DNA from: Flavobacteriales bacterium
GTDB taxonomy: Bacteria; Bacteroidota; Bacteroidia; Flavobacteriales_F; PHOS-HE28
Direction of reading: 5' to 3'
DNA length: 64,000 nt
Assembly (NCBI GenBank): GCA_016704485.1
Contig: JADJAA010000001.1
Location: 1,554,824-1,618,823, forward strand
A program made the position numbers and the translations under genes. Within the stretch, counting starts at the first letter, position 1. Every line of letters begins with the position of its first letter. Shown in pieces: positions 15,554 to 33,354 of the stretch. Under the pieces are notes generated by a model. It saw only the letters and a program-made list of their open reading frames with translations, made no database searches and was not told the DNA's origin.

Positions 15554-15697
15554 CACAAATTCAACACTCCTTCAATAACCCGAAAACTCTCCAACCCACT
15601 TTCTAGATCTTCCACGACCTCGGTGGTGCATTCCGTGGTCTGCGCTTGAACCAGCGTAGAAAGAATTACAGTTAGGAAGAGTAGGAGAGTTCGCATG
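15554..15697 (-). CDS. Possible 47-aa secreted peptide between the GmrSD and giant helicase genes
   Basis: MRTLLLFLTVILSTLVQAQTTECTTEVVEDLESGLESFRVIEGVLNL, a signal-peptide-like N-terminus. It falls below the ORF-track length cutoff and could be spurious. Confidence 0.2.
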
Positions 15698-15719
15698 GGG
15701 TGGTGCTGGTTGTTGAAAT

Positions 15720-17534
15720 TTACAAGCCTTCGTAATAGCCCTTGATCTTTTGTGCCATCAGGTGTTTGCGTTCCTCCAAAAAGGTCTGGTAGCTTTTTAC
15801 ATCATAGTCGAAGATAGCTGTTGGGATGCAGTTCTCGCGCATGTTCTTGCGCAGGTCGGCCATGTTACGCAGACCACCGATGTCACCTTTGCCTTGCTCA
15901 AGCTTGTCCGCAACGGTCGTAAAGTATACCGCTGGCGTTTTGTCACCGATCTTGATGTTTCCGGGTTGGTCCATGTACACCAGATTGCTCACGCGATTGT
16001 ACAGACTGCGACCCAAGCCATTCTTCTTCAACAAGCTGCGGGGGAAGATGTGGTGTACATCTCCGCGTGTAAGCAACATGTCGTTCACGGTGAGGTGCCG
16101 ACTGAACAGACCATGGTCGTTCGCGTTGGCTTGGGCAGCTAGGAATACGCCGAAGAACGGACTGCTCATCACTGGGCTTTCCAAATGCCCTGGAAGTACA
16201 GAATTCCAGAACGCATCACTCAGGTCACCTGCTTCGATCTCGGCTAAGTAGTCGGAAGCATTGCGTTCGTTCAGCCGTTTGATGTCAAAGTCGAATTGGC
16301 TTTCGAAGCTGCCCGTTGCACGTTCGGTCAAGATGCTCATAACGTACCAACGGCGCACCAAGCTTTGTAATTCATTGCCTCGGTCCATTCCTTGACGACG
16401 CAAATGCAGGTACAAGAAATAGGCGAAGTTGATCGCGTTCTTACTGCGCATCAACTTGCTGCGCACGAAGCCTGCCGACCGAAGGATCAACGTGAAGAAC
16501 TTGAAGTCAGTCTCATTCATGAAGCGGGCCACACCAGCGTCCAACTGCTTGAAAGAATTTTCCATAATGGTCTCCTCGAACGTGCGGTTCACGAAATCGC
16601 GTCCACTAAGTAGGCTGACCAGGTCGCTCATTTTACCACGACCGAATTCCACACCGCTGGCAACACGCAACATATCCGTGTAGGCCGGGTCATAGAGATC
16701 TTCGGTTTCGCTGCGTAGCCACTTCATGTTCTTGAAGTGCTCCGTGGCTGCGAACTCGGGGTCGTTCTCCTTGATGTGCTCGTAGTACTGCGGCTCTTTG
16801 CTCAGGTGGCAGAAGTAATCGATGGCCTTGCGCAGAACCGGACCACCATGGTGCTCGTTGCTGGCGATCTTGCTCATGGCAAAGTCCGCTTGGCTCAATA
16901 CGACTCCTTTGCTGTTGATGCGGATGAAGATCTCCGTTACCGTCTCTATGTCCAGTTCGTGGTTCAGTTCGATCACGCCGATCTGCCGCTTGGCTAAATT
17001 GGCCAATTGCCCAAGGCTGCTCTCCACAAGCTCGGCATCTGCATCCGGGTTTGCTGCGGTGTATGCTTTGTTCAATTTGATCAAGCTGAAACCACTCCCA
17101 AAGAACACCGCGATATCCGGCAACCACGCCTTGTCCTTTTGGATGATGGGCGTTTGCACCTCGAACTTCTGGGTGATGGGATGGAACGCGATCTTGATCT
17201 TGATCCGCGCATAATCCTTGTCCACCACGTATTCATCCATTAAAGCAGCACGCAATGCTGTTATGCGTTGTTGCCCATCGATCAAGATCTTCTTGCCGCT
17301 GCCAATGCTGCCATCTTTCAAGCGCACATCCGGGTTCTTCCATGTAATAATGTAGCCCACTGGAAAACCTTGGTAGATGCTATCCATCAGATCGCGGACT
17401 TTGCTCTTATCCCAAACGAATGGGCGCTGGATCTCGGGTATCGCGATCTCTTTCTCTTTCACCCACGACAATAAACTTTCGATAAGCGGCTGTTGGATAC
17501 TGTATTTCTGTGTTTGCATGATCGTGTTGAACAA
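15720..17534 (-). CDS. GmrSD-family type IV (modification-dependent) restriction endonuclease, DUF262 + DUF1524 fusion
   Basis: N-terminal DUF262/ParB-like motif IPEIQRPFVWDKSKVRDLMDSIYQGFPVGYII...LIDGQQRITAL. C-terminal His-Me finger of DUF1524 (DVHHIFPRSLLKKNG). Confidence 0.8.
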   Translation of the reverse strand: MFNTIMQTQKYSIQQPLIESLLSWVKEKEIAIPEIQRPFVWDKSKVRDLMDSIYQGFPVGYIITWKNPDVRLKDGSIGSGKKILIDGQQRITALRAALMDEYVVDKDYARIKIKIAFHPITQKFEVQTPIIQKDKAWLPDIAVFFGSGFSLIKLNKAYTAANPDADAELVESSLGQLANLAKRQIGVIELNHELDIETVTEIFIRINSKGVVLSQADFAMSKIASNEHHGGPVLRKAIDYFCHLSKEPQYYEHIKENDPEFAATEHFKNMKWLRSETEDLYDPAYTDMLRVASGVEFGRGKMSDLVSLLSGRDFVNRTFEETIMENSFKQLDAGVARFMNETDFKFFTLILRSAGFVRSKLMRSKNAINFAYFLYLHLRRQGMDRGNELQSLVRRWYVMSILTERATGSFESQFDFDIKRLNERNASDYLAEIEAGDLSDAFWNSVLPGHLESPVMSSPFFGVFLAAQANANDHGLFSRHLTVNDMLLTRGDVHHIFPRSLLKKNGLGRSLYNRVSNLVYMDQPGNIKIGDKTPAVYFTTVADKLEQGKGDIGGLRNMADLRKNMRENCIPTAIFDYDVKSYQTFLEERKHLMAQKIKGYYEGL

Positions 17535-17620: not shown

Positions 17621-20600
17621 TCAAGCACTGCGCTCACCCGGCTGTGCGTTCCCTTGCACCCACTCCACTACCGAGATGATCTTATCCTGATCATTCTCAT
17701 TCGGGAATAGGCCGAAGATCCCTTCTTGGTGTAGGTCCGTGAACGTTGAACCCGGCTCTGCGAGCATGCGTTTGTCGATCACGCCGTTCACCGTGAGGTG
17801 CCGAATGATGGAATCGATGAAGTGGATCTGCGTAGCACTGAAGATGGAGCCGGACAAGAATTCGCCGAAGGCTGCTTTTGCTGCGCCTTCATCAAGGCCG
17901 ATGATGCTGCGAATGAAATAGCCTAGTGGCCGTTCCTCGCCAAGTTCCTTCATCAAAGCCTCCTTCGTGCCGCGTTCGTCTCCATCGAACAGGATGCGTT
18001 CCAGTTCCACTAGCTCAGCGGTCGTGATCGGCTCATTGGTGTATAGTTTGTGAATGGTAAGCTGGTGTTTGTGCGAGCGGATGAACTCCTCTACACGCAT
18101 CCGATAGCTACGCATGGTGTAGCTACCTGGCATGGAGATGATATCCTCACCCTCGCTCACCAACTCATCTCTCAGGTCCGAGTATACCACTTTGCGTTCC
18201 TCGCGCGGTATCAAGCGCACTAGATCGCGCAATTGTTTTCGTGTGAATTCCAAGGCTTCCAGACCGAACACAGCGGCTCGTTGTTGTTGATCATTTGCGA
18301 CATCAAGAACTGCTTTGATCGCTGGATACCGCTCCTGCACTACGGGAATGTTGGAGAGCCGGGCAAGCTGTGTGGCGGTTGAGGCCAACGTGCGGAACAG
18401 GCGATCTACTGACGGCGCCTCTTGGGCCACAGCAATTTCCAGATCGAGCATAAGTAGGTCAAATCGTTTGGCCAGCTCGTCCTTGTCCGGTAGTTCGATC
18501 AAGTGACCAACGGTCTCGAACAGATCACTGATCCCGCTTTTTGATAACGCATTCCATGCGGTACGTTCACGGTAGTGATCGAGCACACGTTGCGCAGGAC
18601 GAATGCGCACGGTGTGCCGCAATTCCCAAAGTGCCTGGACCCAACTATGCGCACTATTCAAAAGCTCAACGCGTAGTGCTTGATCTTTTGGTACCTGATG
18701 GGCTGGTTCACGCAGTTGTTCACTAAGTAGGATAGTTGCTTCAAAGATCCGTTGCGATAGGCTGGGGGAGCGCACAGGTTCAATGCCTTCCGGCCGCAGG
18801 TTGAAGAAGCTGTAGTTGCCACAGAGATCGAAGATCCTGAAGTTCTCCTTGTGCTGGCCGGGACCGAACAGATCCGGGCATAAGCGTGTGCCGCGGCCAA
18901 CCATTTGCCAGAACTTGGACTTGCTATAGACCGGTTTAAAGAACACCAAGTTCACGATCTCAGGAATATCAATACCCGTATCCAACATATCCACACTCAC
19001 GGCGATCTGTGGATACCGGTCCTTATCACTGAAATTATCTATGATGCTCTGGGAGTATTGCTCCTTACTGTGTACCACCGACATGAAATGCCCACCGTAC
19101 TGCGGGAACTGATCTTCAAAACGGTTCTGTATGGCCCGGGCATGGTCTATGTTCCTTGCAAAGACAACGGTCTTGCCCAGCTTCTCACCACCTTCCACTT
19201 TGATCCCGTTCTCCATCACATAGGCCAACACCTGATCGATGGTGTTCGAGTTGAAGAGCCAGTTATTGATCGCGGGCGCTCCGATCTCTTCGGGTATATT
19301 CCCTTGGTCGTCCCGGAAGGTCTCTTCGTAATGTGTCCTATCGCTCTCACTCAGGTCATCGTAGCGGATACCGCGTTGCAGAAAGCCGAAGTCCACTGCT
19401 TTGCCAATGGGCGGCACCAGAAAACGATCGGCTACGGCCTGCCCTAATTCATAGAACGATGTCGGGTTATGCTCTTCGCAATCGAACAAGGCATAGGTAT
19501 CCCGATCCCCTTGGTCGTGTGGTGTTGCAGTAAGGCCGACCAACAAGGAATCGAAATAGGTGAAAATAGCACCGTACCGATCGTACACTGAGCGATGCGC
19601 CTCATCCACAATGATCAGATCGAAGTGACCGACACCGAAGGTCTTCACATCATCACTCCGCACTTGGTCCACGCGGTTCATTACCGTGGGGTAGGTGCTG
19701 AAGACCACCCGTGCGCTTTCATCATAGCGCTGTTTGGTGAGATCCAATGTGGTAACATTCGGCAGGTTCTTCTCAAAGGCCCGTTTTGCCTGTGTGACCA
19801 AGGCATTGCGATCAGCGAGAAAGAGCACACGCTTCGCCCAATTCGCTTTCAGTAGAAGGTCCACTAACGCGGCAACGGTACGCGTCTTGCCAGCCCCAGT
19901 GGCCATTACGATCAATGCTTTTCGCTTAAGACCGCGCATGCCATCTTCATCCACCCAACTTTCTGCAACCCGCTTGATCGCTTGATGTTGGTAATAGCGT
20001 TCCACGATCTGCTCATCGATCGGCACATGCCGAATGTTCACACGACCGATACGCCGATCAACGACCCGTTGCAATTCGTCCCGCGTGTAAATGCCCTGTA
20101 CAGCGCGTGGACCATAAAAGGTGTCATCCCAGATCCACGTATCGAAACCGTTGCTATAGAATATCACCGGGCGCTGTCCGGTCATGCGTTCCAGGCAATC
20201 AGCGTAAAGGCTTGCTTGCACACGGCCTTGTTGGGCATCGTGGGTGGTGCGCTTGGCCTCTACTACGGCCAGCGGTTTACCATCTGCACCCCAGAGCACG
20301 TAATCTACCTTGCCGTTGCCGTTGGGATTGGTGCTCAATGGCATCCCTGTTACCGGGTATTCGATCACGTTGGATGCGGCAGGGTCCCAGCCTGCTTCGC
20401 GCAACAGTTCATCAATGAAGAGTAACCGTGTATCCGCCTCCGAATATTCAGAAGCAGGTATGGGTATGTTCTCATGGCGCTCCTTGCGCTCCTGGATCGC
20501 TGCCAGGCGTTCTGCCAATATCTGCTTTTCTCCTTCTAATTTCAACCGTTGCTCGCGCTCGGTCTCCATCGCTACACGTTGCGCTTCATAACGCTCCTGT

Positions 20601-21079
20601 AACTGTTGAAGCTCCGCGCTGTTCGGAACTTCCTTCACTTTCACTTGTACTATGAGTGCCTCCTCTTGGAATGTTCCTACCTCGATGTCGAATGCGCTGT
20701 ACGTACGACCCATCCATTTCAAGAACCGGAACAAGAGGCGCAATGAGGCTACGCTCTGGCTCTCCACCACCTTCTTATCATGCGCAGCGGCATTGCCGGT
20801 ACGCCGGATGTACTGCAGGTCGATGTAGATGGGTGGTGGTATCAGTACCCGGAAGGACCGTTCATCCATCAACGCGCTCAACTGGCTGTTGTAAGGGCGC
20901 TGTAGGTCACTGTCGTTATCATACAGCCAGTGCACGGTACGTTCCAACGCACGGCGGGCATACACGGCAGAGGCGATCGGTGCGGCCAAGGCATACCGCT
21001 CCGCGTCCATGGCCTCCTTCGCAATGGAGGGCCACTCTTCAACGAGGAAGCGGAAGTTGCTCGGGGTGCTCAACGACAT
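17621..21079 (-). CDS. hsdR: Type I restriction enzyme R subunit (HsdR) with N-terminal DUF4145-like extension
   Basis: HsdR_N nuclease region SEADTRLLFIDELLREAGWD...KVDYVLWGADGKPLAVVEAKR. SF2 motors: MATGAGKTRTVAAL and DLIIVDEAHRS. The 1152-aa length fits HsdR. Confidence 0.85.
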   Translation of the reverse strand: MSLSTPSNFRFLVEEWPSIAKEAMDAERYALAAPIASAVYARRALERTVHWLYDNDSDLQRPYNSQLSALMDERSFRVLIPPPIYIDLQYIRRTGNAAAHDKKVVESQSVASLRLLFRFLKWMGRTYSAFDIEVGTFQEEALIVQVKVKEVPNSAELQQLQERYEAQRVAMETEREQRLKLEGEKQILAERLAAIQERKERHENIPIPASEYSEADTRLLFIDELLREAGWDPAASNVIEYPVTGMPLSTNPNGNGKVDYVLWGADGKPLAVVEAKRTTHDAQQGRVQASLYADCLERMTGQRPVIFYSNGFDTWIWDDTFYGPRAVQGIYTRDELQRVVDRRIGRVNIRHVPIDEQIVERYYQHQAIKRVAESWVDEDGMRGLKRKALIVMATGAGKTRTVAALVDLLLKANWAKRVLFLADRNALVTQAKRAFEKNLPNVTTLDLTKQRYDESARVVFSTYPTVMNRVDQVRSDDVKTFGVGHFDLIIVDEAHRSVYDRYGAIFTYFDSLLVGLTATPHDQGDRDTYALFDCEEHNPTSFYELGQAVADRFLVPPIGKAVDFGFLQRGIRYDDLSESDRTHYEETFRDDQGNIPEEIGAPAINNWLFNSNTIDQVLAYVMENGIKVEGGEKLGKTVVFARNIDHARAIQNRFEDQFPQYGGHFMSVVHSKEQYSQSIIDNFSDKDRYPQIAVSVDMLDTGIDIPEIVNLVFFKPVYSKSKFWQMVGRGTRLCPDLFGPGQHKENFRIFDLCGNYSFFNLRPEGIEPVRSPSLSQRIFEATILLSEQLREPAHQVPKDQALRVELLNSAHSWVQALWELRHTVRIRPAQRVLDHYRERTAWNALSKSGISDLFETVGHLIELPDKDELAKRFDLLMLDLEIAVAQEAPSVDRLFRTLASTATQLARLSNIPVVQERYPAIKAVLDVANDQQQRAAVFGLEALEFTRKQLRDLVRLIPREERKVVYSDLRDELVSEGEDIISMPGSYTMRSYRMRVEEFIRSHKHQLTIHKLYTNEPITTAELVELERILFDGDERGTKEALMKELGEERPLGYFIRSIIGLDEGAAKAAFGEFLSGSIFSATQIHFIDSIIRHLTVNGVIDKRMLAEPGSTFTDLHQEGIFGLFPNENDQDKIISVVEWVQGNAQPGERSA

Positions 21080-21301
21080 GGAGGCGCAATTGACGATATT
21101 CTAAGCACTTGTACAATTACAAGATGCGAATAAGTCGAGCCTATGATGTGCGGCTTGTGATGGTAACTGCCGCGTGTGGCCCTTTACGGCTCTAAAATAC
21201 ATGTGGATACTTCAGAACCGGTCTTCTTGCTGCTAAGAGAATGCTAATTCCTCTGAAGCACTACATTGCGGACATGTGCACCCACACACGCCTGCTATTA
21301 G

Positions 21302-23375
21302 TTGCGATCGCCATTTTTGGTCGTAGGGCTATGCACGGCGCAACAAGATGGACCAACCGAGGAGGAGCAGCCAACAATTATCACGGCGGAACAACTGCAG
21401 GACTTTAATTCGGTAGTGCCCGGCATGGGTCGACAGATCCCGGGAATATACTTGTCCAACTACGGGCTTCTGTGTTACCACTTTGGGGATGATGGCACAT
21501 TCGCATCGCGCGACTTGAATGATTCCGGTTGGGTCGCAGCCGGTTCATGGTATGCGCCCATCACGTTGCCAAAGGAACAATTGGACACTGCGCAAGCCCT
21601 GTGGGTGCGGTACCATCTTCTCTGCGACAGTTCCCTGCGCGGTAGCCCATTGACACTAAGTTTGGGATCCATTGCCGGTATTGAGATCTTTTTGAACGGC
21701 CATCGGTTGGTGCACGTCCGGGAATTGCCGCCGGTTGTTCATGATCTTGATCAACCAATTTGGGACACGCTGCGGCGCTTTACCCTACCGATCACATTCG
21801 CGTGCCAAGGCGAACCAGAAGTGCTCGCTATTCGGATAGATCCGGCAAGGAATGGAATTCCCTACCCCACTTTGCACTATACGAACTTCGCCTACAACGT
21901 ACAGCTGTCCGCGATGCACTATGGTGTCTTCATCGGGGTCAACGCCATCATCTTTTGCTCGCCTTGGTCCTCTGGTCTTTGGACCGGAATGATAAGCAGT
22001 GGTGGCTACTGGCCCTGCTGGCCTTCGTTACAGGATCAGGGTATGCGCCAAGTTGACCAGTGAGATGGGCTTGTTGGGTTTGCCGTGGCCCACCATCCAG
22101 GTCATTGGCATTATTGACAAGATCCTCCTTCTATGGCCTATGTATGTGCTTATCATGGTCTTGTGGCGCATGCTAGGTGGGTTATCAAGTCGGCGCGCCT
22201 TTTGGCTCACCTTCGGTGTCTTGTTCGTTTCGGCAACCAGCGCTGGCCGCTTGTACTTTTTCGGGAAGATCTCCTGGTCATTTTCGGAGATCACGGGGGA
22301 ATACAGCATAGATGCAGGTTTGTCCGATGATCAGTGGCCACTTTTGGTCGCACTGGTGGTTGGTGCGGTACTGCGCTATTCCATAGCGCTCTGGTTCGCG
22401 ATCGAATTGATCCGACTTGGCATTCGCCTGGTGCGTAAGAAGGGTTTCGGACGTTGGATCGGGGCAGGGGCGCTTGTGTCCAGTCTGTTGAGTTTCCTCT
22501 TGACGTGCTTCGGCCTGGTCACTGAAATACCATCTACGACATGGCTCACACTTTCCGATTATCTCGCCTATGTTGCTGTGCCGGTTTCAGTCGTCATTTA
22601 TCTGGCCGTCACTGCCGCTCAAAACAACAAGCTGGTAGCGCGTCAACGGGATGATCTTGATCGCGAGGTGGACGACCGTACCGCCGAACTTGTAGCGGAG
22701 AAACAAGCGGTGTTGCGCGAGAAAGAACGCAGCGATGAACTACTCCTCAACATCCTGCCATCCGAAGTGGCGGAAGAACTAAAAGCCAACGGTTCGGCAA
22801 AGGCGCGGGACTTCGATCCCGCCACCATCCTGTTCACCGACTTCAAAGGCTTCACGGAGCTATCCGTGCAATTAAGTGCTCAGGATCTGGTGGCCGAGAT
22901 CAATACGTGTTTCGAGGCGTTCGATGGGATAATTTCCCGGTACGGTGTGGAGAAGATCAAGACCATTGGCGATGCTTACATGGCGGCAGGTGGCGTGCCT
23001 GATCCTCTGCGCGGATCACCGGCAGGTGTTGTAGAGGCCGCGTTGGAGATGCAGGAATTCATGGTCAGGTACAAAGCGCAACGAACAGCCTTGAACAAAC
23101 CGGCCTTCGAGATGCGTCTCGGTGTTCACACCGGCCCAGTGGTGGCGGGCATCGTGGGTGTGAAGAAGTTCCAGTACGATATCTGGGGCGACACCGTGAA
23201 CACGGCCAGCCGCATGGAGAGCAATAGCGAAGTGGGCCAAGTAAACATCTCGCAGAGCACCTATGAACTGGTGAAGAACGTGCCGGGACTTGCCTTCACA
23301 TCGCGAGGCAAAATACCAGTGAAAGGGAAAGGAGAGCTGGAAATGTACTTCGTAAAGAGAGGGCCGGTCGCATAG
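21302..23375 (+). pseudogene. 7TMR-DISM-type membrane adenylate/guanylate cyclase, apparently disrupted by frameshift(s)
   Basis: ORF 21302..22063 (frame 2) encodes a 7TMR-DISMED2-like extracellular domain and ends in a TM helix. ORF 21999..23375 (frame 0) encodes the remaining TM helices plus a class III cyclase domain (FTDFKGFTELS...IKTIGDAYMAAGG...GDTVNTASRMES). TM-like peptide also reads through in frame 1 (HHLLLALVLWSLDRNDKQWWLLALLAFVTG) between them. This suggests at least one and probably two frameshifts near 21930-22060. Confidence 0.55.
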
Positions 23376-23390
23376 CCATTTCCGATCCCT

Positions 23391-23460
23391 ACTCCCCCCA
23401 AAACGCCCCCTGCAGCAAAAGCCCGAACAAGTCCTCGCTCCGGCGTAGGTTCGCAGTGGA
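23391..23460. repeat. Orphan copy of the hsdS 3' terminus (direct repeat copy A, ~85% identical to 24314-24385)
   Basis: On the minus strand this short open frame encodes ...RSEDLFGLLLQGAFWGE*, homologous to the real HsdS C-terminus QSEGLFGSLLQGAFRGELGN*. It lies just 3' of the 324-aa gene. Confidence 0.7.
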
Positions 23461-23476
23461 ACACCGGTAGTGCTGT

Positions 23477-24274
23477 CTATCCACTCCACTTCACGATATC
23501 CGCCACTACCGTCTTGTAGCTCAAGCCACGCAGCCGTTTCACCACCACGATGCGGGTATCTCCGTACTGCTCTGCGCGTTCGACCGACGAGTCAGTTGGT
23601 CTACTTTCCTTGATCCCCAGCCCCGTGCGAAAATGCGACCACCACGTATCGTTGGTGAGCACCACACAGAGTTTCGGCTGTAATTCCTCCAGTTCCATGC
23701 GCACCAGATCCACGCATTCGGGTCGTTGCAGGATGCGCTCGTCCACATCCGGATTGGCCACTTCGCCACGGTTCTGCGGTGCGATCTTGTAGAGGTTGGA
23801 CCATACCAGTTGACGGTTCCATTCCCACGCGTCCTCATTTGTGATGCCGTGCCGAACCTGCATCAGCTTGACCGTGGCCTGCCAGAAGAACGATGACCAA
23901 GCGCGGTAGTTCTTCTCCCGTTCGGTATACCAGGCTTGTTCTTCCGGGCTACACTTGTTCAAGGTAGTGTTCGTCCACAACACGTTCACCCAATCCAACG
24001 GGGAGTGGTCTTTGAAGGGTTCGTTGGAGTAGCGCTTGCTCTCTTCTATGCGGCCCCTCGGTACTGCCTTCGTGAAGTCCCACTCCGGGTGCCAACCACC
24101 CACGGCCTGGCCGTAGACCAGCACATCAACCGGTTCATTCGTTCGCGTACCGATGCTCGGATAGAAGTCTGTGAAGTGGGTGCGTTGCGGAAAGGTGCGC
24201 GCCAGTCGACGTTGAAAGGCTTCCAAGTGTTGCTGGTAGGCGGCGTTATAGGTTGGTGAGAGGGTGCGATACAT
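23477..24274 (-). CDS. Hypothetical protein (cassette flanked by hsdS-terminus repeats)
   Basis: ORF 23477..24451 has its likely start at MYRTLSPTYNAAYQQ (24274), because the region upstream is occupied by repeat B/hsdS. No domain recognised. Confidence 0.45.
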   Translation of the reverse strand: MYRTLSPTYNAAYQQHLEAFQRRLARTFPQRTHFTDFYPSIGTRTNEPVDVLVYGQAVGGWHPEWDFTKAVPRGRIEESKRYSNEPFKDHSPLDWVNVLWTNTTLNKCSPEEQAWYTEREKNYRAWSSFFWQATVKLMQVRHGITNEDAWEWNRQLVWSNLYKIAPQNRGEVANPDVDERILQRPECVDLVRMELEELQPKLCVVLTNDTWWSHFRTGLGIKESRPTDSSVERAEQYGDTRIVVVKRLRGLSYKTVVADIVKWSG

Positions 24275-24302
24275 TATGTCCGTGCTGCGTGATCCTCTTC
24301 CG

Positions 24303-25448
24303 TTAGTTCCCCAACTCCCCCCGGAACGCCCCCTGCAACAAACTCCCGAACAAGCCCTCGCTCTGGTGTAAGCTTGCTGCAATGCAGGTGCGCTGCTTTT
24401 GGATGTTATGGAGTAATGTTCCGAACCGTTCCTGCGCTTTGAGTGGAACAAGTGGAATACGCATTCTTCGGATCTCTTCTGTTGTGATATTCTTGAAGAT
24501 GGCTCCCACCGACTTATCGCTGACCCCTACGGCGAGCATATTCAGATAATGGTAAATGAACCTCAGGTCAAAGCCTTTGTCAAAGTCACGAAATCCTGCA
24601 AATCCATCGTGTATGCAACAGTCGACCATCAGGATCGCTGGCAGGCCTGGCTTCCCACTTACAGCCATCACCAAGTCACCACGTTTCATTGGACGACTGC
24701 GCTGTGAGCCTTCAATCGTGAGTGAATCGATCTGAGGTGTCACATACATCCCATCACGGGTCAAGTCTGCAACCATTAGGCGAGGCACGGGACCTCCAAA
24801 GTATCGCGCATCACCCTGTGGTCTTGGACTGCTCCCACGGACGACCTCACACAACGAACCCAAGTCTACAGTTTCCCACCCCCTCTCATTCCGCACCGGA
24901 TCCCCGAACAGCTCCAAGAACAGGCTCTTGGCAAGTTGGTCGTAAACCGCCAAGGTTCGCCGGTCGTTGGCCACCAGCGCCTGCGCCTTGTCCAAGATCG
25001 CCGCGATGCGACGCTGCGTGGGGAGGGCGGGCGGAGCAAAAGGTAAGCTGCGGATATCTTCTATCTTGAAGCCTTTCACCGTCGCTCCGTTTCCACGCGA
25101 AATGAAGTAATTCTCTTTCGCAAATAGAAAGTAATAGAGATAGGTCTGGTCAACCTTGCCATTTATAACAAGCGCCTTCAGATCCTGATTGAATGCCATC
25201 GGCACGTTCGTGATCGACATGCGCCCAAGAGCCATGCGTGTTGCAATCAATAACGTTCCGGCTGGAACTATCTGTGTCGCACAATTATCTACACCGCGTT
25301 CAGTGATCGACTCGTACGTCTCCGAAATATGCTTTGATGTAAGATCCTTCACCGTAGCCCATGGGACATCACCTTCCCAATAGCCCTCGATATCGCGATT
25401 AGGAGTACCACCACCAAGTATCTGGATATAATTGCCCAGCACGCTCAT
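24303..25448 (-). CDS. hsdS: Type I restriction-modification specificity subunit (HsdS)
   Basis: 381 aa with two TRD-like halves and the conserved terminal ...LLQGAFRGELGN. It overlaps the hsdM stop by 4 nt (25445-25448). Confidence 0.8.
   Translation of the reverse strand: MSVLGNYIQILGGGTPNRDIEGYWEGDVPWATVKDLTSKHISETYESITERGVDNCATQIVPAGTLLIATRMALGRMSITNVPMAFNQDLKALVINGKVDQTYLYYFLFAKENYFISRGNGATVKGFKIEDIRSLPFAPPALPTQRRIAAILDKAQALVANDRRTLAVYDQLAKSLFLELFGDPVRNERGWETVDLGSLCEVVRGSSPRPQGDARYFGGPVPRLMVADLTRDGMYVTPQIDSLTIEGSQRSRPMKRGDLVMAVSGKPGLPAILMVDCCIHDGFAGFRDFDKGFDLRFIYHYLNMLAVGVSDKSVGAIFKNITTEEIRRMRIPLVPLKAQERFGTLLHNIQKQRTCIAASLHQSEGLFGSLLQGAFRGELGN
24314..24385. repeat. Direct repeat copy B; this is the genuine 3' end of hsdS
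   Basis: Sequence actcccccc(gg)aacgccccctgca(a)caaa(ct)cccgaacaag(c)cctcgctc(t)gg(t)gta(a)g... matches 23391-23460. The matching copy A is the orphan fragment above. Confidence 0.7.
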
Positions 25449-27004
25449 TTCAACAACGCCTCCAATTCGTCCAACAATTTCACACGGTCGGCGGCCAATT
25501 GGCGCAGGCCGGGTTCTCCCTTTTTGCCGTTGATCAGCTCGGCGGGCGTGGCATACTTCACTTGCTCGTACACCACCTCCTTGTAGCGGTTTATGCTGAG
25601 GTCCCAGTTGTTGGCCTTCAAGTCCGCAAAGGGCACCAGAAAGCTCTGGTCGGTTCGTGCACGTTTGCTTTCACCTTTCGCACCGAAGCGCGCTAGGATG
25701 TCGGCGATGTTGCTTTTCTCGTGCAGCGTTTTCGCTCCCTTGGTGGGCTCGGTGTATTGGAGTTCAAGCTGTTCTTCGGTGAGTTGCGGTGTGCGCTTAT
25801 CATCCAACGAGAAACCGTCGGCACGCATGTCGTAGAACCACACGTTGTCGGTACCGCCGCTATCGGTCTTGGTAAAGATCAGCACCGCGGTGCTCACCCC
25901 TGCATAGGGTTTGAATACGCCGCCGGGCATGCTGATCACCGCTTGCAATTGCTGGCGTTCGATCAGTTCCTGCCGCAGTTGCTTGTGCGCCTTGCTGCTG
26001 CCGAAGAGCACACCATCGGGCACGATCACAGCTGCGCGGCCACCTGTGCGGAGCATGCGCAGGATCAGACCTAGGAAGAGCAACTCGGTCTTCTTGCTGC
26101 TCACTGTGCGCAAGATCGCAGGGTCCACAGCGTCGTGGTCCAAGCTGCCTTTGAACGGCGGGTTCGCTAACACCAGCGAGAAGCGCTCACTGATGTGGCC
26201 TTGCTCTTTGCTAAGCGCATCCTGCCCGATCAGTTGCGGGTGCTCAATGCCGTGCAACATCATGTTCATGGCACCAATGCGCAACATGCTGGAGTCGAAC
26301 TCGACCCCGGTGAAGAGGTTGGTGTTGTAATGCTCGCGGAACTTCTTCTCGTGGAAGCTGTCCGGGTGCGTGCGCCGTATCTCTTCGCTTGCCGCCACCA
26401 AGAAACCGCACGTGCCGGCACTGGGATCGCAGATGGTATCGGTGGGTTGCGGAACCATCAGTTGCACCATCATGCGGATGATGTGGCGCGGTGTGCGGAA
26501 CTGGCCGTTGCGTCCTGCCGTAGCGATCTTGCCCAGCAGGTATTCATAGAGGTCGCCCTTGGTGTCGCGGTCGGCCATGTCCAGCGCGGCGATCATTTGC
26601 ACGGCGCGGTCCAGCAACCGCGCGGAGGGGATCATGAACGTAGCACCCTTCATGTGCTCACTGAACACGCTGCCCTCGCGCCCCATCTGCTTCATGAAAT
26701 CGAAGACCGTGAGGTTATCGTTCTTCGCATCAGGCCGCGTAAAGAGCGCGAACAATGTATCCGGGTCCTTGTCCTTGAAACTGCTCCACCGCAACGCCTT
26801 GTACTTGGGCGGGTAAATGGGATCCTTGATGGGCCCACCGAGCTTGGCGCTCTGCTTCTCTTTGGTGGTCTGGATCTCATCCATCCGGCGCAAAAAGAGC
26901 AAGTAGGTGATCTGTTCGATAACCGTGAGCGGATTGGCGATGCCGCCAGTCCAGAAGGCCTCCCAGAGGCGGTCGACGTCGGAGCGGAGTGTTCCGTTTA
27001 TCAT
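25445..27004 (-). CDS. hsdM: Type I restriction-modification N6-adenine DNA methyltransferase (HsdM)
   Basis: HsdM_N region present. Motif I ICDPSAGTCGFLVAA and motif IV LANPPFKGS are both intact. Confidence 0.9.
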   Translation of the reverse strand: MINGTLRSDVDRLWEAFWTGGIANPLTVIEQITYLLFLRRMDEIQTTKEKQSAKLGGPIKDPIYPPKYKALRWSSFKDKDPDTLFALFTRPDAKNDNLTVFDFMKQMGREGSVFSEHMKGATFMIPSARLLDRAVQMIAALDMADRDTKGDLYEYLLGKIATAGRNGQFRTPRHIIRMMVQLMVPQPTDTICDPSAGTCGFLVAASEEIRRTHPDSFHEKKFREHYNTNLFTGVEFDSSMLRIGAMNMMLHGIEHPQLIGQDALSKEQGHISERFSLVLANPPFKGSLDHDAVDPAILRTVSSKKTELLFLGLILRMLRTGGRAAVIVPDGVLFGSSKAHKQLRQELIERQQLQAVISMPGGVFKPYAGVSTAVLIFTKTDSGGTDNVWFYDMRADGFSLDDKRTPQLTEEQLELQYTEPTKGAKTLHEKSNIADILARFGAKGESKRARTDQSFLVPFADLKANNWDLSINRYKEVVYEQVKYATPAELINGKKGEPGLRQLAADRVKLLDELEALLK

Positions 27005-27017
27005 GGGGTGAAGATGG

Positions 27018-28226
27018 TCAATGTTTGGTGATGGTGGTAAATTCCCATTTAGACTGTCCGTTCAGTTCGACTTGTTTGACTTGGCCGGAAACGAGGTCGC
27101 CATCCACAAGGCTGTGTAGTTTTATCAGATCCTTGTTGATGTAGGCATCGCCAGCATGGGCGTAGGTGTTATCGTTGCGTTTCTTGACCACGACGCGGCC
27201 CAGTTCTTTGGTATCACCGTCGAGTAGGGGAACTCCGTCGCTGCCTACCGCTTCCTCGTGTAGCCAGGTTCGGTTCGCCTTGGGGTCTGGATACTTTGCT
27301 GCGAACTTCTTGAACCAGACCAACACGTCCATGAGCTGGAACACGATGGTGCTCAAGAGGTAAGGCGTTACACCATGCTCGTGTAGTGCTTCGAGATTGT
27401 CCAAGCTGTAATTGGAATCCTCAGCGGTCTCGTCCGCATGCGAGCTTTCGCTGGTTACCCGCAGAATATTGTCCAGTGCATCGGCAACGATCCGGGGCAT
27501 CATCGGGCGGTCACACTTCAAGGCCACCGTGGCCGAAGAACGGCTCGGATAAAGCACGCGCTCGCCCCGCAGGAACAGTGCTGACAAGCGTTGGTTGACC
27601 CTCGGCTTTACAAGGACATCGGGTAGTAACCCGTGCCGATGCGCGGCATAGAAGAAGTGCTCCACTACCTGACGCAAAGGATTCATGAATAAGCGATCAC
27701 TACCGGACTTGTCCCCGCGATCCACAAAGCGCAATGCGTCCATGAACATAGGGTCGGCAACGGCATCCAAATAAGGAACTTGGAGCACTGCGAACACATC
27801 GGCATACCTATCACGAAGCGCTTGCTCGTTGCTTCGATCAACAAGGCTCTGTAGTTCCGCGTATAGGTCCTTCTCGTTCCCTTTCAAGTACCGCCGCTCA
27901 TCACGACGGTTCTTTGTTGCACCTTCGTCAAAGCCGGTATTGATCACATACGGAATATGAATGTTCGCTCCTTTCCATTGGTCCAGATCCCTGCGGGCTT
28001 CATGCAGGTGGTCGATGTCCTCGGTGGGTGAATGTTCATCCACCTGCCCTCTGGCATCGAGGATCAAGGCTTTGAAACGCTTTTCTCGGATCGGTTCCTT
28101 AGCCTCGGCCCAGGTCTTGAACCAAGTCACTTCGAAACCGTGCGCGACCGCCTTAGCAATTTGGGCTTTGGCGTATGCTTCATCGTCATCTACTAAGGCG
28201 ATCGGAACCAGGTCAAACAGTGTCAT
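27018..28226 (-). CDS. Receiver (REC)-like domain protein with uncharacterised C-terminal output domain
   Basis: Likely start MTLFDLVPIALVDDDEAYAKA (acidic pair after beta-1). Putative phospho-acceptor Asp in KALILDARG. Thr in IPYVINTGF. The C-terminal ~300 aa are unknown and contain an Rx4H motif (RQVVEH). The start overlaps the stop of the upstream kinase gene by ~14 nt, and the gene ends 13 nt before the hsdM start. Confidence 0.55.
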   Translation of the reverse strand: MTLFDLVPIALVDDDEAYAKAQIAKAVAHGFEVTWFKTWAEAKEPIREKRFKALILDARGQVDEHSPTEDIDHLHEARRDLDQWKGANIHIPYVINTGFDEGATKNRRDERRYLKGNEKDLYAELQSLVDRSNEQALRDRYADVFAVLQVPYLDAVADPMFMDALRFVDRGDKSGSDRLFMNPLRQVVEHFFYAAHRHGLLPDVLVKPRVNQRLSALFLRGERVLYPSRSSATVALKCDRPMMPRIVADALDNILRVTSESSHADETAEDSNYSLDNLEALHEHGVTPYLLSTIVFQLMDVLVWFKKFAAKYPDPKANRTWLHEEAVGSDGVPLLDGDTKELGRVVVKKRNDNTYAHAGDAYINKDLIKLHSLVDGDLVSGQVKQVELNGQSKWEFTTITKH

Positions 28227-30909
28227 GCGAAATGGGAAGGTCAATGGTGAAGTGGACAAACATTTGAGTGGATACAGCTTCCCGGTCAAATGGTATCCAA
28301 TGATTCTCGTCTATACGTTGATCGCGTTCAAAACTCGATCGGTACTTGTCATCGCTCACTGGCAGGTTACCCGACACGAACTTTCCGCCGTGGTTGGCAA
28401 TGATCCGATCGATCAGATAGCCGCCTATGCCATTGCCCTTTTTCATGTCCAGACGCTTGCCAAAGGTGATGAAGTGCTCATGGGTAAAACCTTCCGGAAA
28501 GGGTTTGCCGTTGTTCTCGATGGTGATAACCAATCGCGTTCGTTGAGGTTCAATACGCGTTGATACCCTCACCCGTACGACCAATTGTTCCTGATCCGAT
28601 CGAAGGCCGTGTTTGGCCATATTGATGAACAAGTTCTGGATGACAAGTGCGAACTGTTGTTGATCGACATGTGCGATCACTCCTTCAGTGGTTTCTAGTC
28701 CAGCTTCACATTCGAAAATGACCATAAGCGCTTTCACCTGGTCGGCAAGTCCGCGCAATTCCGTTCGGAACAGTCGACGAAGGTCGATGGGCACTGGTCT
28801 TAGACTCTCCTTATCTGATCGGATCACCGCATTGATCAATTGAAAGAGACCGCGCATGCGATCCAATCCACTATTCATTGTATCTAGGGCGGTGGTGATC
28901 GTAGACTTTTCAACTGGGCCCAAACTGTTGAGTACTGCATGGATCTCGGCCATGGGTTGCTCCAGAAGCGCCACCACCGGGCGGAAGCTGTGCTCCACTG
29001 CACCAAGGATCTGCCACTCATCAGTGGAGAGGCCATGCTGTTTTTCCTGCCTAGCGATCTCCTCCTTCTTCGCCAATAGAATGGATTCCTTCCGTTCGCG
29101 AACAATGCGCAGTTGATCCTTGAGTTCGGGTAAGCGAACCCGAATTCTCAGAACGTCTGCTTTGGCTATGAAAGCGATCGTACTTCCTTGGTGGTATGCG
29201 TCGAGCTGATCTTGGATCGTGGGCGTTCTTAGTTCTGTTGCGAGGTATTCGGTATTAGCACGAGCCGCATCCACACGGAACATGAATACATTGCTTCCCA
29301 CGGCGATCGGTCCATCTACCGGGTCGAATAAGGTCGGCTTCAACTTTCCGCCCACCCGTGCAAGTAGCAGTGCTGGCACATCCAATCTCTTCAGTCCCTT
29401 CTTGACAGAACCGGTTTCATGTTGCCCATCACGCGCCGTGCGCCTCATGTCGAGGACATCCGTTGAAAGCTCGGAGACCTGGAAGAGCGGCAGACCGGCG
29501 AGGTCGCCCATGGAGAGGATATCGTCCGAAAGCACGGTGCCGAGTTCAACCACGTCCACACCATCCGCTTCGGCCACGATATGGGCTTGTTGAAGCAGGC
29601 TGGCAAACCGACTCATGCTCCAAGACACATGCTCGTCGGAACGGATGTCAGAAACCTTCACGTCCAAAACACCTTGTAAGGTATAAGTGCTATCCAACGC
29701 CTGCAGCACGCTGCTAACATCGAGTGTTATTTCGGATCGCGTCTTGTATGTGACATGCAAACCCGCATCCACGAATCGGACAGGCGCATTCGTTGGCCGT
29801 GATCCATTCAAAACAATGATCGAGGTCTTTATCCCTGAGTAGGGTGTGAAGGATCCTGCTGGCAACGAGATCACTGCTTCGAGCAACCCTAGGTCAAGAA
29901 TCTGTTTGCGTAGATGCGCTCTGTTGATGCCGAACAACATACTCTCGGGCACAAGGATCACCGCCTTCCCCTCGGGTGCAAGCCGCTTGAGGATCTGGTT
30001 GATCGCTATCTCATAGGGTTCTATCGCGCGTAGCCTTCCTTCCTCTTTCACTCGACCACCGAAAGGTGGTGCACTAATGCAATGCGTATACTTCTTGTTG
30101 GAAGCACCGGGTGCTGATGGTTCGTTCAAGGCGGCGTTCAGGTCTGCCCCGAGAATACGTGCTTGCAGCGTATTGAAGAAGAATGCGAATTGGTTGAAGA
30201 ATACCGCGTCGAGCTTTACAGAATGTGGCGCACGCGCTGCGAGCACTGCTGGCAATACGCTCGCATCCGCAGCTGGGTCGAATACCTCTTCCACGTCTCC
30301 GAGCAGCCGCGCCATAAGCATTGCAACGGACCATGGCGTACAGAACTGGCCCATGTGACTATCGCGCAAGAGGAGGCTACGCATTTCTTCCACATACTCG
30401 ATCGGTTCCAAACCCGCTGATGCCATGAGAAAAAGCTCAGTTTGTACTGGGCTTGTTGCCAGTGCGCCGCCATTTTTAAGAAGATACGAATGCTGCTCCC
30501 CAAAGTCCTTAAACTCCTCTGCCAATTCATTCAAGGTGGACCATAATCCTTCTCCTCTTTGAGCGATCGTAGGCAACACTCCTGCTGGGCGCACGGCCAA
30601 GGCATAAATGAGTGCCAGCTCCAAGCCAACGGTCTGCGCGAAGGGCATGGATCGTAGCGCATTGCGCAATTCCCATGCGTGGGCCTGAAAAAAACGGACC
30701 CGGTTCAACATACGTTCTGGATCCAACTGTAAACTACCGTCATCGGATATACTAACACGCCCACCAGACAACTCCACCTCAGCAAGCAAGCTCGATGGCT
30801 CAACGTCCTTCTGGCTCAATAAGACCTTGACGATATTACAGACACCCTCCAAAGTATCCGAGCCGTTCTTCAGGCGAAGGGCACATATTATGGCGTCTAT
30901 CAGTTTCAT
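28213..30909 (-). CDS. Fusion protein: degenerate N6-adenine MTase-like domain + HsdS-like TRD + histidine kinase (HisKA + HATPase_c)
   Basis: MTase fold present: GQFCTPWSVAMLMARLLG...VFDPAADASVL (the glycine-rich SAM loop is degenerate) and ISAPPFGG (motif IV with Asn/Asp replaced by Ala). TRD-like stretch: VGSNVFMFRVD...STIAFIAKADVLRIRVRLP. H-box: AVEHSFRPVVALL. N box: VIQNLFINMAKHG. G boxes: IENNGKPFP and GNGIGGYLIDRIIANHGG. Confidence 0.75.
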   Translation of the reverse strand: MKLIDAIICALRLKNGSDTLEGVCNIVKVLLSQKDVEPSSLLAEVELSGGRVSISDDGSLQLDPERMLNRVRFFQAHAWELRNALRSMPFAQTVGLELALIYALAVRPAGVLPTIAQRGEGLWSTLNELAEEFKDFGEQHSYLLKNGGALATSPVQTELFLMASAGLEPIEYVEEMRSLLLRDSHMGQFCTPWSVAMLMARLLGDVEEVFDPAADASVLPAVLAARAPHSVKLDAVFFNQFAFFFNTLQARILGADLNAALNEPSAPGASNKKYTHCISAPPFGGRVKEEGRLRAIEPYEIAINQILKRLAPEGKAVILVPESMLFGINRAHLRKQILDLGLLEAVISLPAGSFTPYSGIKTSIIVLNGSRPTNAPVRFVDAGLHVTYKTRSEITLDVSSVLQALDSTYTLQGVLDVKVSDIRSDEHVSWSMSRFASLLQQAHIVAEADGVDVVELGTVLSDDILSMGDLAGLPLFQVSELSTDVLDMRRTARDGQHETGSVKKGLKRLDVPALLLARVGGKLKPTLFDPVDGPIAVGSNVFMFRVDAARANTEYLATELRTPTIQDQLDAYHQGSTIAFIAKADVLRIRVRLPELKDQLRIVRERKESILLAKKEEIARQEKQHGLSTDEWQILGAVEHSFRPVVALLEQPMAEIHAVLNSLGPVEKSTITTALDTMNSGLDRMRGLFQLINAVIRSDKESLRPVPIDLRRLFRTELRGLADQVKALMVIFECEAGLETTEGVIAHVDQQQFALVIQNLFINMAKHGLRSDQEQLVVRVRVSTRIEPQRTRLVITIENNGKPFPEGFTHEHFITFGKRLDMKKGNGIGGYLIDRIIANHGGKFVSGNLPVSDDKYRSSFERDQRIDENHWIPFDREAVSTQMFVHFTIDLPISHDTV

Positions 30910-30971
30910 GCAACGGGGGTCAAAGTAAGCGGTGGAGGGTTATGGTGTAGATGTGTTTGCAGGTTATGATC

Positions 30972-32234
30972 TCAAGCGACTTTCTCCAGTCGGTTTGTCG
31001 GCAGAAGTTGGGCAGCCATACGATCCATGACCTCCCATTCCGGACGTGTGTACGAGTTGCTCTCCGTGACCACCGGGATCCTGAATTCGCCCATGGCATC
31101 CTCGCGCATAGCCCATTGATCCTTCTGGTCGTAGAGCTTTGTTCCGGGCAAAAGCATCAGCGGCCAAGCCTTAACGTCCCTGCAGCCTTTGGATAAGAGG
31201 TGGTCGATACTACGCTGGAAACTTTCCAAGGTCTGTCCGGGCAACCCGTAGATCAAACTCACTTCGAAAGGAATCTCGCGCTCCACAAGCTGTTCAATAG
31301 CAGCATCGACAAGATCCATCCGATTGGCGCGGTCAATTTTCTTGGACACTGCATGGTCCGTGGTCTGCAACCCGAACTCCAAGTGGAAGTTGGCTTGCGT
31401 ACAAAGGTCCAGGAATGCATTAACCTGTTGGCCTCGGATATTCTCAAAGCGCGATTGCAGGGTGAAGGTGGAGCGCGTACGGAGTTGAACGATCTCTTGC
31501 ATTATATCCAGGCACTCCTTCCCAGCGTTGAAGATGGGGTCGAGTATGTTCACGCGTTGCACACGATGTTCAGTGAGAAATGCTAACTCTTTAAAGACTT
31601 TATCCAGTGGGTGCTTATGCACGCGGTGAGTGGCGAGGTCGCGGTGTGCGCAAAATGAACACCGGTAGGGGCAGCCGCGTTTGGTCTCCAACCGTACCAT
31701 ACCGGCTCCCATTGGTACAGGCAATTCGCCAGTGAGATACGGTGAGGCCAGTTGTGTGAAGTCCACTGGTACGTTCACGAACACGGGTTCGTCGGCATCG
31801 AGATGGTCCGTCAATTCGGCAAAGGCTTGTTCGGCTTGTCCGGAGATGAAGACCTGGCAATCCGGATACCGACGCAGCAATTCTGCTCGGTTCCCGTAGG
31901 TGACTTGATACCCTCCGAGGACCACCTTGCCAAGGAACCCAAGACGACGAAGCAATGCGATGATGCCATTGGTGAGGTACTCGTTCCAGATGTAAGCCGA
32001 GAGCGCGATGGCGTTAAAGCGGCTCACATCAAGCGCCGCGAGTTGCACTTCGAATTGCTCGGGTGTGGCCGTGCCGCCGTGTTCGAGCATGTTGATCGAG
32101 AGGTGTTCCACGTGCATCTGTCCACGCAGCCGTTCATTACTCCGTTGGTGTGCCAAGAGAGATGCGATCGCCAAGGGCTTGGTGATCTCACCGTGCCGGA
32201 TCAGGTCGAAGGATATGATGAGCGTGTTCGTCAT
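30972..32234 (-). CDS. B12-binding-domain radical SAM protein
   Basis: N-terminal cobalamin-binding-like Rossmann region followed by a radical SAM cluster motif (MVRLETKRGCPYRCSFCAHR). The ~420 aa are counted from the probable start MTNTLIISFDL. Confidence 0.8.
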   Translation of the reverse strand: MTNTLIISFDLIRHGEITKPLAIASLLAHQRSNERLRGQMHVEHLSINMLEHGGTATPEQFEVQLAALDVSRFNAIALSAYIWNEYLTNGIIALLRRLGFLGKVVLGGYQVTYGNRAELLRRYPDCQVFISGQAEQAFAELTDHLDADEPVFVNVPVDFTQLASPYLTGELPVPMGAGMVRLETKRGCPYRCSFCAHRDLATHRVHKHPLDKVFKELAFLTEHRVQRVNILDPIFNAGKECLDIMQEIVQLRTRSTFTLQSRFENIRGQQVNAFLDLCTQANFHLEFGLQTTDHAVSKKIDRANRMDLVDAAIEQLVEREIPFEVSLIYGLPGQTLESFQRSIDHLLSKGCRDVKAWPLMLLPGTKLYDQKDQWAMREDAMGEFRIPVVTESNSYTRPEWEVMDRMAAQLLPTNRLEKVA

Positions 32235-32343
32235 TGGTCCTCGCCACCAAGGGTCTATATGGTTGGATAATCGCTCAACCAACGAACTTCCCTATGGCAA
32301 CGGACCAAAAGTCCCGGTCACCTGTGCAGTCTATCTGCACAGT

Positions 32344-33354
32344 TCATTTCGCGTAGTTCTTCTTCATTTCCATCACCCGCAAAAGCAGCGCTTGGCGTAG
32401 TTCTTCCGGCGCAATAACCTGTAGCCCTTCTCCATAAGATAACAACAAGGCTTGTAGCTCGTAGTTCAGCTTCACTTCTAAACGAATAGTCGCGCCGCCG
32501 TCTTTTCTCTTCACTACTTTCTGCGAACCGTGTATAGGCTTTGACTCCAAATAAGGCCAAAGTCTATCCGTGACTTGGATCTTGACAACAACAGCTTCTT
32601 GATCCGCAGGTACACTTACACCAACAACATCCTCAAAATACTCCGTGAAATCCACCTCATCGTTCGGTATGTATTTCACCTTACTGGGTACAATATCCCG
32701 GATCCGGTCCAAGGCCATATTGACAATACGCCCCTCTTCCTCAAGACCAAAAACAAACCAACGGTTGTTATACTGTTTCAAGTAATACGGATGGAGCAAC
32801 ACAATGCTAGGCGCATTTTGCTTGAAGCCTTGGTAAGATATTTCCAAGGCTTGCTCATTGATGATCGAATGAAATAATGTGGTAATGTGCTCGGCACCTT
32901 TCAAATACGGGTTCTGCTCAAACTCGATGACCTGAGCAGCCCCTTGTTTCAGCCCGAAACCAGCTTCCAACCGAGCAACTAATTCATCTACCCATTCAAA
33001 CTGCGGCATGCCCTTAAATCGGCTCAGCGTTAAGAGCGCCTCCTTCAATTGTTCCGCTTCGCTCTCGTTCAGCGGTCGCTTGTTGATAGAGAATTCAAGG
33101 TCACTGTACCGGTAAAAAGTACGCTTTCCGTCTTTGTGTTTCTCCAGCGGGATAGCCCATCCTTGTTCGCTCTCCATGTACTTGATGTCCTCGAAAACTT
33201 GGCGGCGGCTGATGCTTGCACCTGCTCCGGTGAACTCCTCCAACGCCATGTTGCAAGCTTCCATCAGGTCTTCGATGAAATACTCGCGCCCACGGTTCGC
33301 AAAGCAACGGTCCATTGTCTGATAGCGAATAAGGGCATTCTTATTTACGGGCAT
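32344..33354 (-). CDS. WYL-domain transcriptional regulator (wHTH-WYL; BrxR/CapW-like)
   Basis: The ~336-aa size and architecture match BrxR/CapW regulators. The WYL-like core is LLHPYYLKQYNNRWFVFG, with an N-terminal HTH region. It sits at the head of a same-strand defence gene block. Confidence 0.65.
   Translation of the reverse strand: MPVNKNALIRYQTMDRCFANRGREYFIEDLMEACNMALEEFTGAGASISRRQVFEDIKYMESEQGWAIPLEKHKDGKRTFYRYSDLEFSINKRPLNESEAEQLKEALLTLSRFKGMPQFEWVDELVARLEAGFGLKQGAAQVIEFEQNPYLKGAEHITTLFHSIINEQALEISYQGFKQNAPSIVLLHPYYLKQYNNRWFVFGLEEEGRIVNMALDRIRDIVPSKVKYIPNDEVDFTEYFEDVVGVSVPADQEAVVVKIQVTDRLWPYLESKPIHGSQKVVKRKDGGATIRLEVKLNYELQALLLSYGEGLQVIAPEELRQALLLRVMEMKKNYAK

Follow-up and report, generated by a model that had tools for sequence, protein, structure and literature searches.

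Restriction-linked open reading frames (ORFs) and insertions of the prrC/rloC type are known between the hsd genes of Type I restriction-modification (R-M) systems. The specificity gene, hsdS, is in addition a site of recombination, which takes place at its conserved regions and is described as hsdS inversions, swapping of target-recognition domains (TRDs), and domain movement (PMC5198162, PMC3077401). This report deals with a Type I R-M locus of a Flavobacteriales bacterium (assembly GCA_016704485.1, contig JADJAA010000001.1, positions 1,554,824 to 1,618,823; these 64,000 nucleotides, counted from their first letter, are called the window), in which an orphan copy of the hsdS 3' end, here tail A, is separated from the true end of the gene, tail B, by an unrelated gene, here gene X. 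Our verdict is that tail A is the scar of a single recombination event at the conserved end of hsdS, left in a cargo-swapping hotspot inside the R-M locus, and that the locus is not a shufflon.

The likeness to the described systems is partial in each case. As in hsdS domain movement, the repeated element is the C-terminal conserved region, i.e., the one that together with the central region brackets the second TRD (TRD2), but the product here is a stranded extra tail with an unrelated gene between the copies, and neither a second TRD nor a new specificity allele. As in the classic hsdS mosaics (PMC3077401), the TRDs cannot be aligned between lineages, and the conserved blocks are 81-100% identical. 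The presence of more than one copy of an hsdS segment recalls the phase-variable multi-hsdS shufflons of Streptococcus, Mycoplasma, and Bacteroides; however, shufflons depend on repeats in inverted orientation and on silent, TRD-bearing copies of hsdS, and in most cases also on a tyrosine recombinase; none of these was found here, and, unlike in shufflons, no population heterogeneity was seen at this locus among same-species contigs. As with other accessory genes of Type I R-M loci, the hsdS-hsdR interval holds gene X and a varied cargo, and does so in two or more unrelated Type I families; among this cargo, across lineages, are a cyclase, HipA, RES/Xre pairs, a GIY-YIG gene, and AAA_15/DUF4276 genes. 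Unlike the prrC/rloC-type inserts, gene X is predicted to have the fold of a uracil-DNA glycosylase (UDG) and not to be an anticodon nuclease. Recombination in the conserved hsdS regions and hsd remnants are already familiar (PMC3077401), as are Type I accessory genes; the locus is a new instance rather than a new kind.

The two hsdS tails

A repeat search of the window returned positions 23387-23454 and 24310-24377 as a single two-copy family of direct repeats, 68 nt long, 82% identical, and 923 nt apart, and found no inverted pair involving either copy. By blastn the two copies are 85% identical over 61 nt, and in a direct comparison 57 of 74 positions agree, with a longest perfect run of 13 nt. 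An earlier note on this stretch, made from its letters, had described direct repeats of ~85% identity here; they are real, with the boundaries and the identity now refined to the values above. The outward alignment that the note proposed was made with MAFFT on the wider flanks, where the similarity ends at the block edges on both sides. Searched with a degenerate core pattern of 29 nt, at a tolerance of three mismatches, the 64 kb yield the two repeat sites and no other (0 expected, from 100 shuffles), and a tblastn search of the whole window with four HsdS proteins found hsdS and tail A only, with no further hsdS fragment. When metagenome contigs were scanned with the tail pattern, the matches were hsdS ends only.

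Copy B belongs to a gene that overlaps hsdM, directly upstream, by 4 nt, ends with a stop codon at 24303-24305, and is recognizable from its predicted product as the specificity subunit of a Type I R-M system: it has two Methylase_S domains, central (about 24871-25027) and terminal conserved blocks, and the adjoining hsdM. The copy encodes ...ASLHQSEGLFGSLLQGAFRGELGN*, the C-terminus of a complete 381-aa HsdS, and the earlier note was right in taking it for the real coding end of the gene.

To place both copies in their family, 13 hsdS ends were aligned, from loci gathered via homologues of X and via the metagenome scan. They share one conserved block of ~60-65 nt, with the consensus (A)GCCTxCGxCxGAGCGAGGxxTTGTTCGGGAGCTTGTTGCAGGGGGCGTT, and nothing else in the 3' half of hsdS is conserved between alleles: neither the upstream part (TRD2 and linker) nor the downstream part can be aligned. 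The length of the window repeat is therefore just that of the family-wide HsdS C-terminal conserved region. Three loci from other lineages, L001, L055, and L085, serve for the closest comparison: tail B is 86-92% identical to their hsdS tails, and the central region of the window hsdS is 88-91% identical to that of L055 and L001 and matches that of L085 without a difference (100%) over 123 nt. At the DNA level, only these two regions of hsdS align between the window and the three loci, and the TRDs are unalignable.

Tail A starts ~22 nt past the stop codon of X and ends ~13 nt from that of a convergent cyclase gene. The four HsdS proteins find it by tblastn in the hsdS frame, with E-values from 7e-5 to 1e-2, and its translation in that frame gives the family motif SE.LFG.LLQGAF.GE. 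Of the 13 tails it diverges most, being 73-83% identical to the others, vs 75-98% for the functional tails among themselves. As expected of a dead relic, it alone alters the otherwise invariant core TTCGGGAG[C/T]TTGTTGCAG (a region also written as GGGAG[C/T]TTGTTGCAG), by a change from Ser to Leu. Further differences are a Gly to Asp replacement in SEGLFG, also found in L085, a Trp at a variable position, and a Leu codon turned from TTG into TAG; the copy has neither a start codon nor a TRD. Being in frame and truncated, with a premature TAG and replacements at invariant positions, tail A is read as an hsdS pseudogene fragment under relaxed constraint. This agrees with the earlier note, which had called it an orphan in a short open frame; that frame is ~21 codons long and closed by the premature stop.

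A role of tail A as a terminator or RNA structure was considered and rejected, as no terminator-like hairpin was found in it and its fold is not unusual (z = 0.06). As a separate observation, the 3' end of the hsdS mRNA in the tail B region (24278-24385, minus strand) can form a 13-bp stem, GCAGCAAGCUU / AGUUUGUUGC, with a fold z-score of -2.4, and this stem is not formed by the equivalent tail A region. The codons just upstream of tail A (23461-23491, minus strand) read SGVDRQHYRCST in the hsdS frame, and their VDRQH resembles the I/L-D/E-x-Q-x found at that position of HsdS elsewhere. The resemblance may be a coincidence; if real, it would mean that the relic overlaps the last codons of X.

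A mosaic seam between hsdS and hsdR

The arrangement is uniform among the same-species contigs. Identical gene order was found in 23 same-species contigs retrieved via X and 22 retrieved via hsdR, from several wastewater metagenomes and metagenome-assembled genomes, with no presence/absence polymorphism of X and no inversion polymorphism among them. An alignment of seven of these contigs shows ~99.9% identity over 15.4 kb, with the two tails in each.

Outside the species, X lies between hsdS and hsdR in many lineages, in differing company. In L055, only 21 nt separate hsdS from X, while a 277-294-aa gene stands between them in L001, L061, and L065, and other genes do so in L068 and L071; in L074, X belongs to a quite different Type I family, whose HsdM is only 26% identical. 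None of the other X loci inspected (L001, L055, L061, L064, L068, L071, and L074) has a second tail after X, the six metagenome loci with the tail each have a single copy, and about a dozen other lineages lack a second hsdS tail altogether. The cargo between X and hsdR also varies by lineage, being the cyclase, HipA with a HIRAN-like gene, a 1827-aa ATPase with RES/Xre pairs, or AAA_15 with DUF4276.

Two of these lineages account for different parts of the window locus. With L055, the segment from 24363 down to 23494, which runs from tail B through the spacer into X, gives an unbroken alignment of 886 nt at 72% identity, and because the alignment is a single block, tail and X are an inherited unit. 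With L085, a 3.5-kb metagenome contig that begins inside the cyclase, the window shares the cyclase at 92.7% DNA identity, and this homology ends at 23366, 9 nt before the stop codon. The slot between the single hsdS tail of L085 and its cyclase is occupied not by X but by two other genes, one of 273 aa and a GIY-YIG gene of 269 aa. Since tail B and X are collinear with L055, while the hsdS center and the cyclase match L085, the locus is a mosaic in which an L055-like tail-X unit is set into an L085-like backbone. Tail A sits exactly at the seam of this mosaic, beside the cyclase. It is a truncated and diverged hsdS end at a mosaic junction in a hotspot of cargo turnover. The comparison of related strains that the earlier note had called for thus gave the same arrangement in every same-species contig and other genes in the slot of L085.

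Other loci hold remains of a similar kind. Positions 1937-2162 of L061 (the same in L062 and L081) carry an orphan hsdS 3' fragment of the last 74 codons, 98.6% identical to the hsdS end of L065, which abuts a gene whose secreted product bears a Por_Secre_tail sorting domain; this locus has lost hsdM and the 5' portion of hsdS and has kept X and hsdR. The 55-aa ORFs between hsdS and X in L068 (3115-3282), L071 (2033-2200), and L082-L084 are N-terminal stumps of the GIY-YIG nuclease gene, which is intact, at 269 aa, in L085 (1050-1859). These stumps are further debris of cargo turnover.

Origin of the stranded tail

In the explanation that we favor, at a probability of roughly 0.6, tail A is the non-functional and decaying remnant of about 21 last codons of an earlier hsdS end, i.e., the scar of a past recombination in an hsdS-hsdR interval that acts, within this Flavobacteriales group, as a hotspot of accessory-gene exchange. 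The starting point would be an ancestor with the L085-like backbone, in which the end of hsdS directly faced the cyclase gene. DNA coming from a related locus would have brought in TRD2, tail B, and gene X, and would have been joined upstream by a homologous crossover, either in the conserved hsdS center or in hsdM, and downstream by an illegitimate, i.e., non-homologous, event just ahead of the resident tail. The old TRD would thereby have been lost and the old tail stranded behind X, where it would have gathered substitutions and a stop codon. In this path, the order of events and the illegitimate right-hand junction are the parts that we infer. Homology-facilitated illegitimate recombination is known from transformation studies, and the path fits its pattern. 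The repeats are by now too short and too diverged for ready recombination. In its general form, the claim of the earlier note that a recombination or insertion event took place at the conserved hsdS tail is supported by the match in block length, by the two-lineage mosaic, and by the other genes in the L085 slot.

Four points weigh against this explanation. Among the relatives found, none has the cyclase directly next to an intact hsdS that ends like tail A, which leaves the proposed ancestor hypothetical. The start of the relic is no more than ~22 nt away from the 5' edge of the conserved block, a coincidence if the illegitimate join was random, and one that a crossover inside the tail explains more naturally. 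The L085 contig is short and begins within the cyclase, and its lineage could have X at another place. Lastly, the left crossover cannot be placed, because TRD2 of the window resembles neither that of L055 nor that of L085.

A crossover inside the tail is the core of a Campbell-type capture, which we consider unlikely. Here, a circularized fragment of tail plus X would have entered by a single homologous crossover with the resident hsdS tail, so that the tail became duplicated around X. The number of steps does not separate it from the favored replacement, the two being equally parsimonious in this respect, and it accounts for two copies that flank X exactly, for a repeat as long as the conserved block, for a tail A that begins near the 5' edge of this block, and for the contiguity of tail and X in L055. 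It would also fit hybrid copies, as tail A has the GAC (SEDLFG) of the L085 tail and a 3' end like that of tail B, although very few sites are involved. On the other hand, the crossover would have had only 60-65 nt of roughly 85-90% homology to work with (the longest perfect run is now 13 nt), and an illegitimate step is still needed for the circularization. The expected relatives are missing as well: the loci listed above have no tail after X and the six metagenome loci no second copy, and no variant marking excision or absence was seen among ~22 contigs. Capture of a cassette by homologous recombination, one of the two origins that the earlier note had put forward, is a possibility, so far unproven, and it is not a general mechanism, since a second tail turned up at no other locus that holds X or an hsdS of this family.

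Rather improbable is a decayed second hsdS, in which the locus would once have read hsdS1, X, and hsdS2, as in multi-hsdS Type I systems, until a deletion spared only the last 21 codons of hsdS2. Tail A is indeed a bona fide hsdS end of the same family, and large 5' deletions that leave hsdS 3' stumps do occur, as in L061. The VDRQH codons, if compared with the IDxQx of other alleles, might faintly suggest that the hsdS-like frame extends a few codons further upstream. Against this, none of the sampled relatives has an hsdS downstream of X, and the deletion would need to have ended precisely at the stop codon of X.

The conserved 60-nt tail can also be imagined as a portable homology handle, by which defense genes are captured and exchanged among Type I operons, the gene in question here being one with a predicted UDG fold whose product may be a Brig-like glycosylase directed at modified phage DNA. 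If so, the window would show a caught intermediate with both handles still present. We regard this as a long shot, as there is no second example among about a dozen lineages sampled.

An active phase-variable system, be it a shufflon, an alternative-TRD arrangement, or a programmed excision of X via the repeats, is very improbable. Repeated hsdS segments are a hallmark of phase-variable Type I systems (PMC5198162, PMC3077401), and the earlier note had considered a remnant of such a system as the other origin. The repeats here are direct and not inverted, their identity of 82% includes no perfect run above 13 nt, tail A carries no TRD, and the 64 kb hold no other hsdS fragment. No match to the recombinase families (integrase, invertase, transposase) was found among the ORFs of at least 180 aa scanned in window positions 1-46 kb, and none was found among the gene calls around the repeat or in the sister contigs. 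The search for further hsdS-like pieces or a recombinase, as the note had suggested, came back empty on both counts, and the same architecture recurs in the 23 contigs anchored on X and the 22 anchored on hsdR, from several metagenomes.

A chance similarity, or a dispersed repeat unrelated to hsdS, which the earlier note had named as the test of its own reading, can be ruled out almost with certainty, given two copies in 64 kb where 0 are expected, a tail A in the hsdS frame, and a tail pattern that finds hsdS ends only.

An integrative element or cassette with att-type direct repeats was likewise rejected, as X has a predicted UDG fold and is not a recombinase, and none of the other X loci or hsdS-tail loci inspected has two tails. 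A tRNA gene, as a sign of an integrative element, was not found, and there is no G+C discontinuity around the cassette.

Gene X, its neighbors, and the meaning of the scar

The earlier note placed a 324-aa gene exactly between the repeats. The placement holds, and the size does not: the 324-aa ORF arises when the frame is extended to a TTG, so that it overlaps hsdS by ~150 nt, whereas the deposited protein P0001 (MYRTLSP...) and all homologues start at the ATG at 24277, so that the product has 265 aa. Sequence searches against Pfam, PADLOC, NCBIfam, and PDB gave no match. The homologues of X form 52 clusters at 90% identity, and a profile search extended the family to 1,341 clusters at 50% identity (E <= 1e-3).

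An AlphaFold model of X, built on 25 homologues, has a pLDDT of 92.3 and a pTM of 0.91. With this model, ranks 1-37 of the Foldseek search of PDB are all members of the UDG superfamily (family-4 UDG 4ZBY/4ZBX, TDG, SMUG1, UdgX, and MUG), the best being the family-4 UDG of S. tokodaii, 4ZBY/4ZBX; the probability reaches 0.99, yet the E-values are only ~5e-3 and the TM-scores 0.3-0.5. In seven out of ten distant members of the family, PF03167 (UDG) is the top Pfam match, below the threshold (14-19 bits vs 24.3), and the members from Marinomonas and Shewanella bear the NCBI record name 'uracil-DNA glycosylase family protein'. By our own reading of the alignment and the model, GQAVGGW follows strand 1 and WSNLYKIAP...NP is family-4-like. 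On its modeled fold, X thus qualifies as a divergent member of the UDG superfamily, with the predicted alpha/beta UDG fold. The His-Pro of motif B is present in the gammaproteobacterial members (KHPQGK), and in Flavobacteriales the place is taken by KRLRG, as in the window, or KRP. Because KRLRG replaces KHPQGK, the Flavobacteriales branch may have an altered active site.

Two antiviral DNA glycosylases offer a comparison and are precedents in function. Brig1 is a protein of 261 aa whose best structural match is 4ZBY (PMC11078745), and Brig2 is a second example and UDG-like (10.1101/2025.10.29.685425). Gene X is like Brig1 in size, at ~265 aa, in its best PDB match, and in its context, a defense island, and away from R-M loci it has a WYL regulator as its partner. 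Set against this likeness are the lack of a PADLOC or NCBIfam match and the KRLRG where distant family members have KHPQGK. Outside R-M loci, the commonest neighbor of X is a WYL/WCX regulator of ~306 aa, directly downstream of it in 10 loci; X family loci noted alongside this pairing are L010, L012, L015-L017, and L075. The recurrence in R-M loci and beside WYL regulators makes X a reasonable candidate for a Brig-like defense glycosylase, as far as the modeled fold can tell.

The features of the locus are collected in Table 1. Together, X, tail A, and the cyclase part hsdR from hsdM-hsdS. Compared with all seven sister contigs, where its ORF is intact (700-711 aa), the cyclase of the window has three 1-nt indels; these are probably homopolymer errors of a long-read assembly and not the mark of a true pseudogene. 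When cyclase homologues beside hsdS were sought elsewhere, the nearest were at about 50% identity; they occur in ordinary chromosomal contexts outside R-M loci and reveal no donor.

Table 1. Coordinates of the features of the locus in the 64-kb window
Feature	Position	Strand	Description
1610-aa DEAD/UvrD helicase	10664-15496	-	
GmrSD-like gene	15720-17534	-	
hsdR	17621-21079	-	1152 aa; Pfam ResIII, EcoEI_R_C, HSDR_N
class III adenylate/guanylate cyclase, membrane domain	21240-23375	+	convergent on X and tail A; 711 aa in sister contigs
tail A	23387-23454	-	orphan hsdS 3' relic, 21 codons, ANLRRSEDLFGLLLQGAFWGE then premature TAG at 23389-23391
gene X	23477-24277	-	265 aa; from homologue alignment and deposited protein P0001
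hsdS	24303-25448	-	381 aa, two target-recognition domains; Pfam Methylase_S (PF01420), 2 stretches, E 2.7e-31
tail B	24310-24377	-	conserved 3' block of functional hsdS, codons ...SLHQSEGLFGSLLQGAFRGELG
hsdM	25445-27004	-	519 aa; Pfam N6_Mtase, HsdM_N
402/423-aa protein	27018-28289	-	no family match
898-aa protein	28213-30909	-	fusion of N6-MTase, TRD-like region, HATPase_c
B12/radical-SAM protein	30972-32282	-	PADLOC PDC-M51A, E 7e-117
WYL/WCX regulator	32344-33354	-	

Upstream of hsdM, a module on the minus strand (27018-33354) consists of the WYL regulator, the B12/radical-SAM protein, the 898-aa fusion, and the protein of ~400 aa. It accompanies the Type I genes in three lineages, i.e., the window, L001 (981-6206), and L055 (1-7254), and may be one composite system. 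Further genes of a defense type flank the locus at 6850-17534 and 35458-40638; they include a RecQ-like helicase with a DprA/SLOG protein, the 1610-aa DEAD+UvrD double helicase, GmrSD, an HNH protein, a 795-aa AAA_21/SMC-like ATPase, and a protein with an amidohydrolase domain. The whole window is a defense island.

The orphan tail itself is a small evolutionary scar, whose value is that of a dated breakpoint. It records a turnover of accessory genes in the hsdS-hsdR interval of this Type I system from Flavobacteriales, with the conserved end of hsdS at one of the junctions. The more useful by-product is the enclosed gene X, which belongs to a large and unannotated family with a predicted UDG fold that recurs inside Type I R-M loci and beside WYL regulators, and which may be taken up as a testable candidate for a defense glycosylase.

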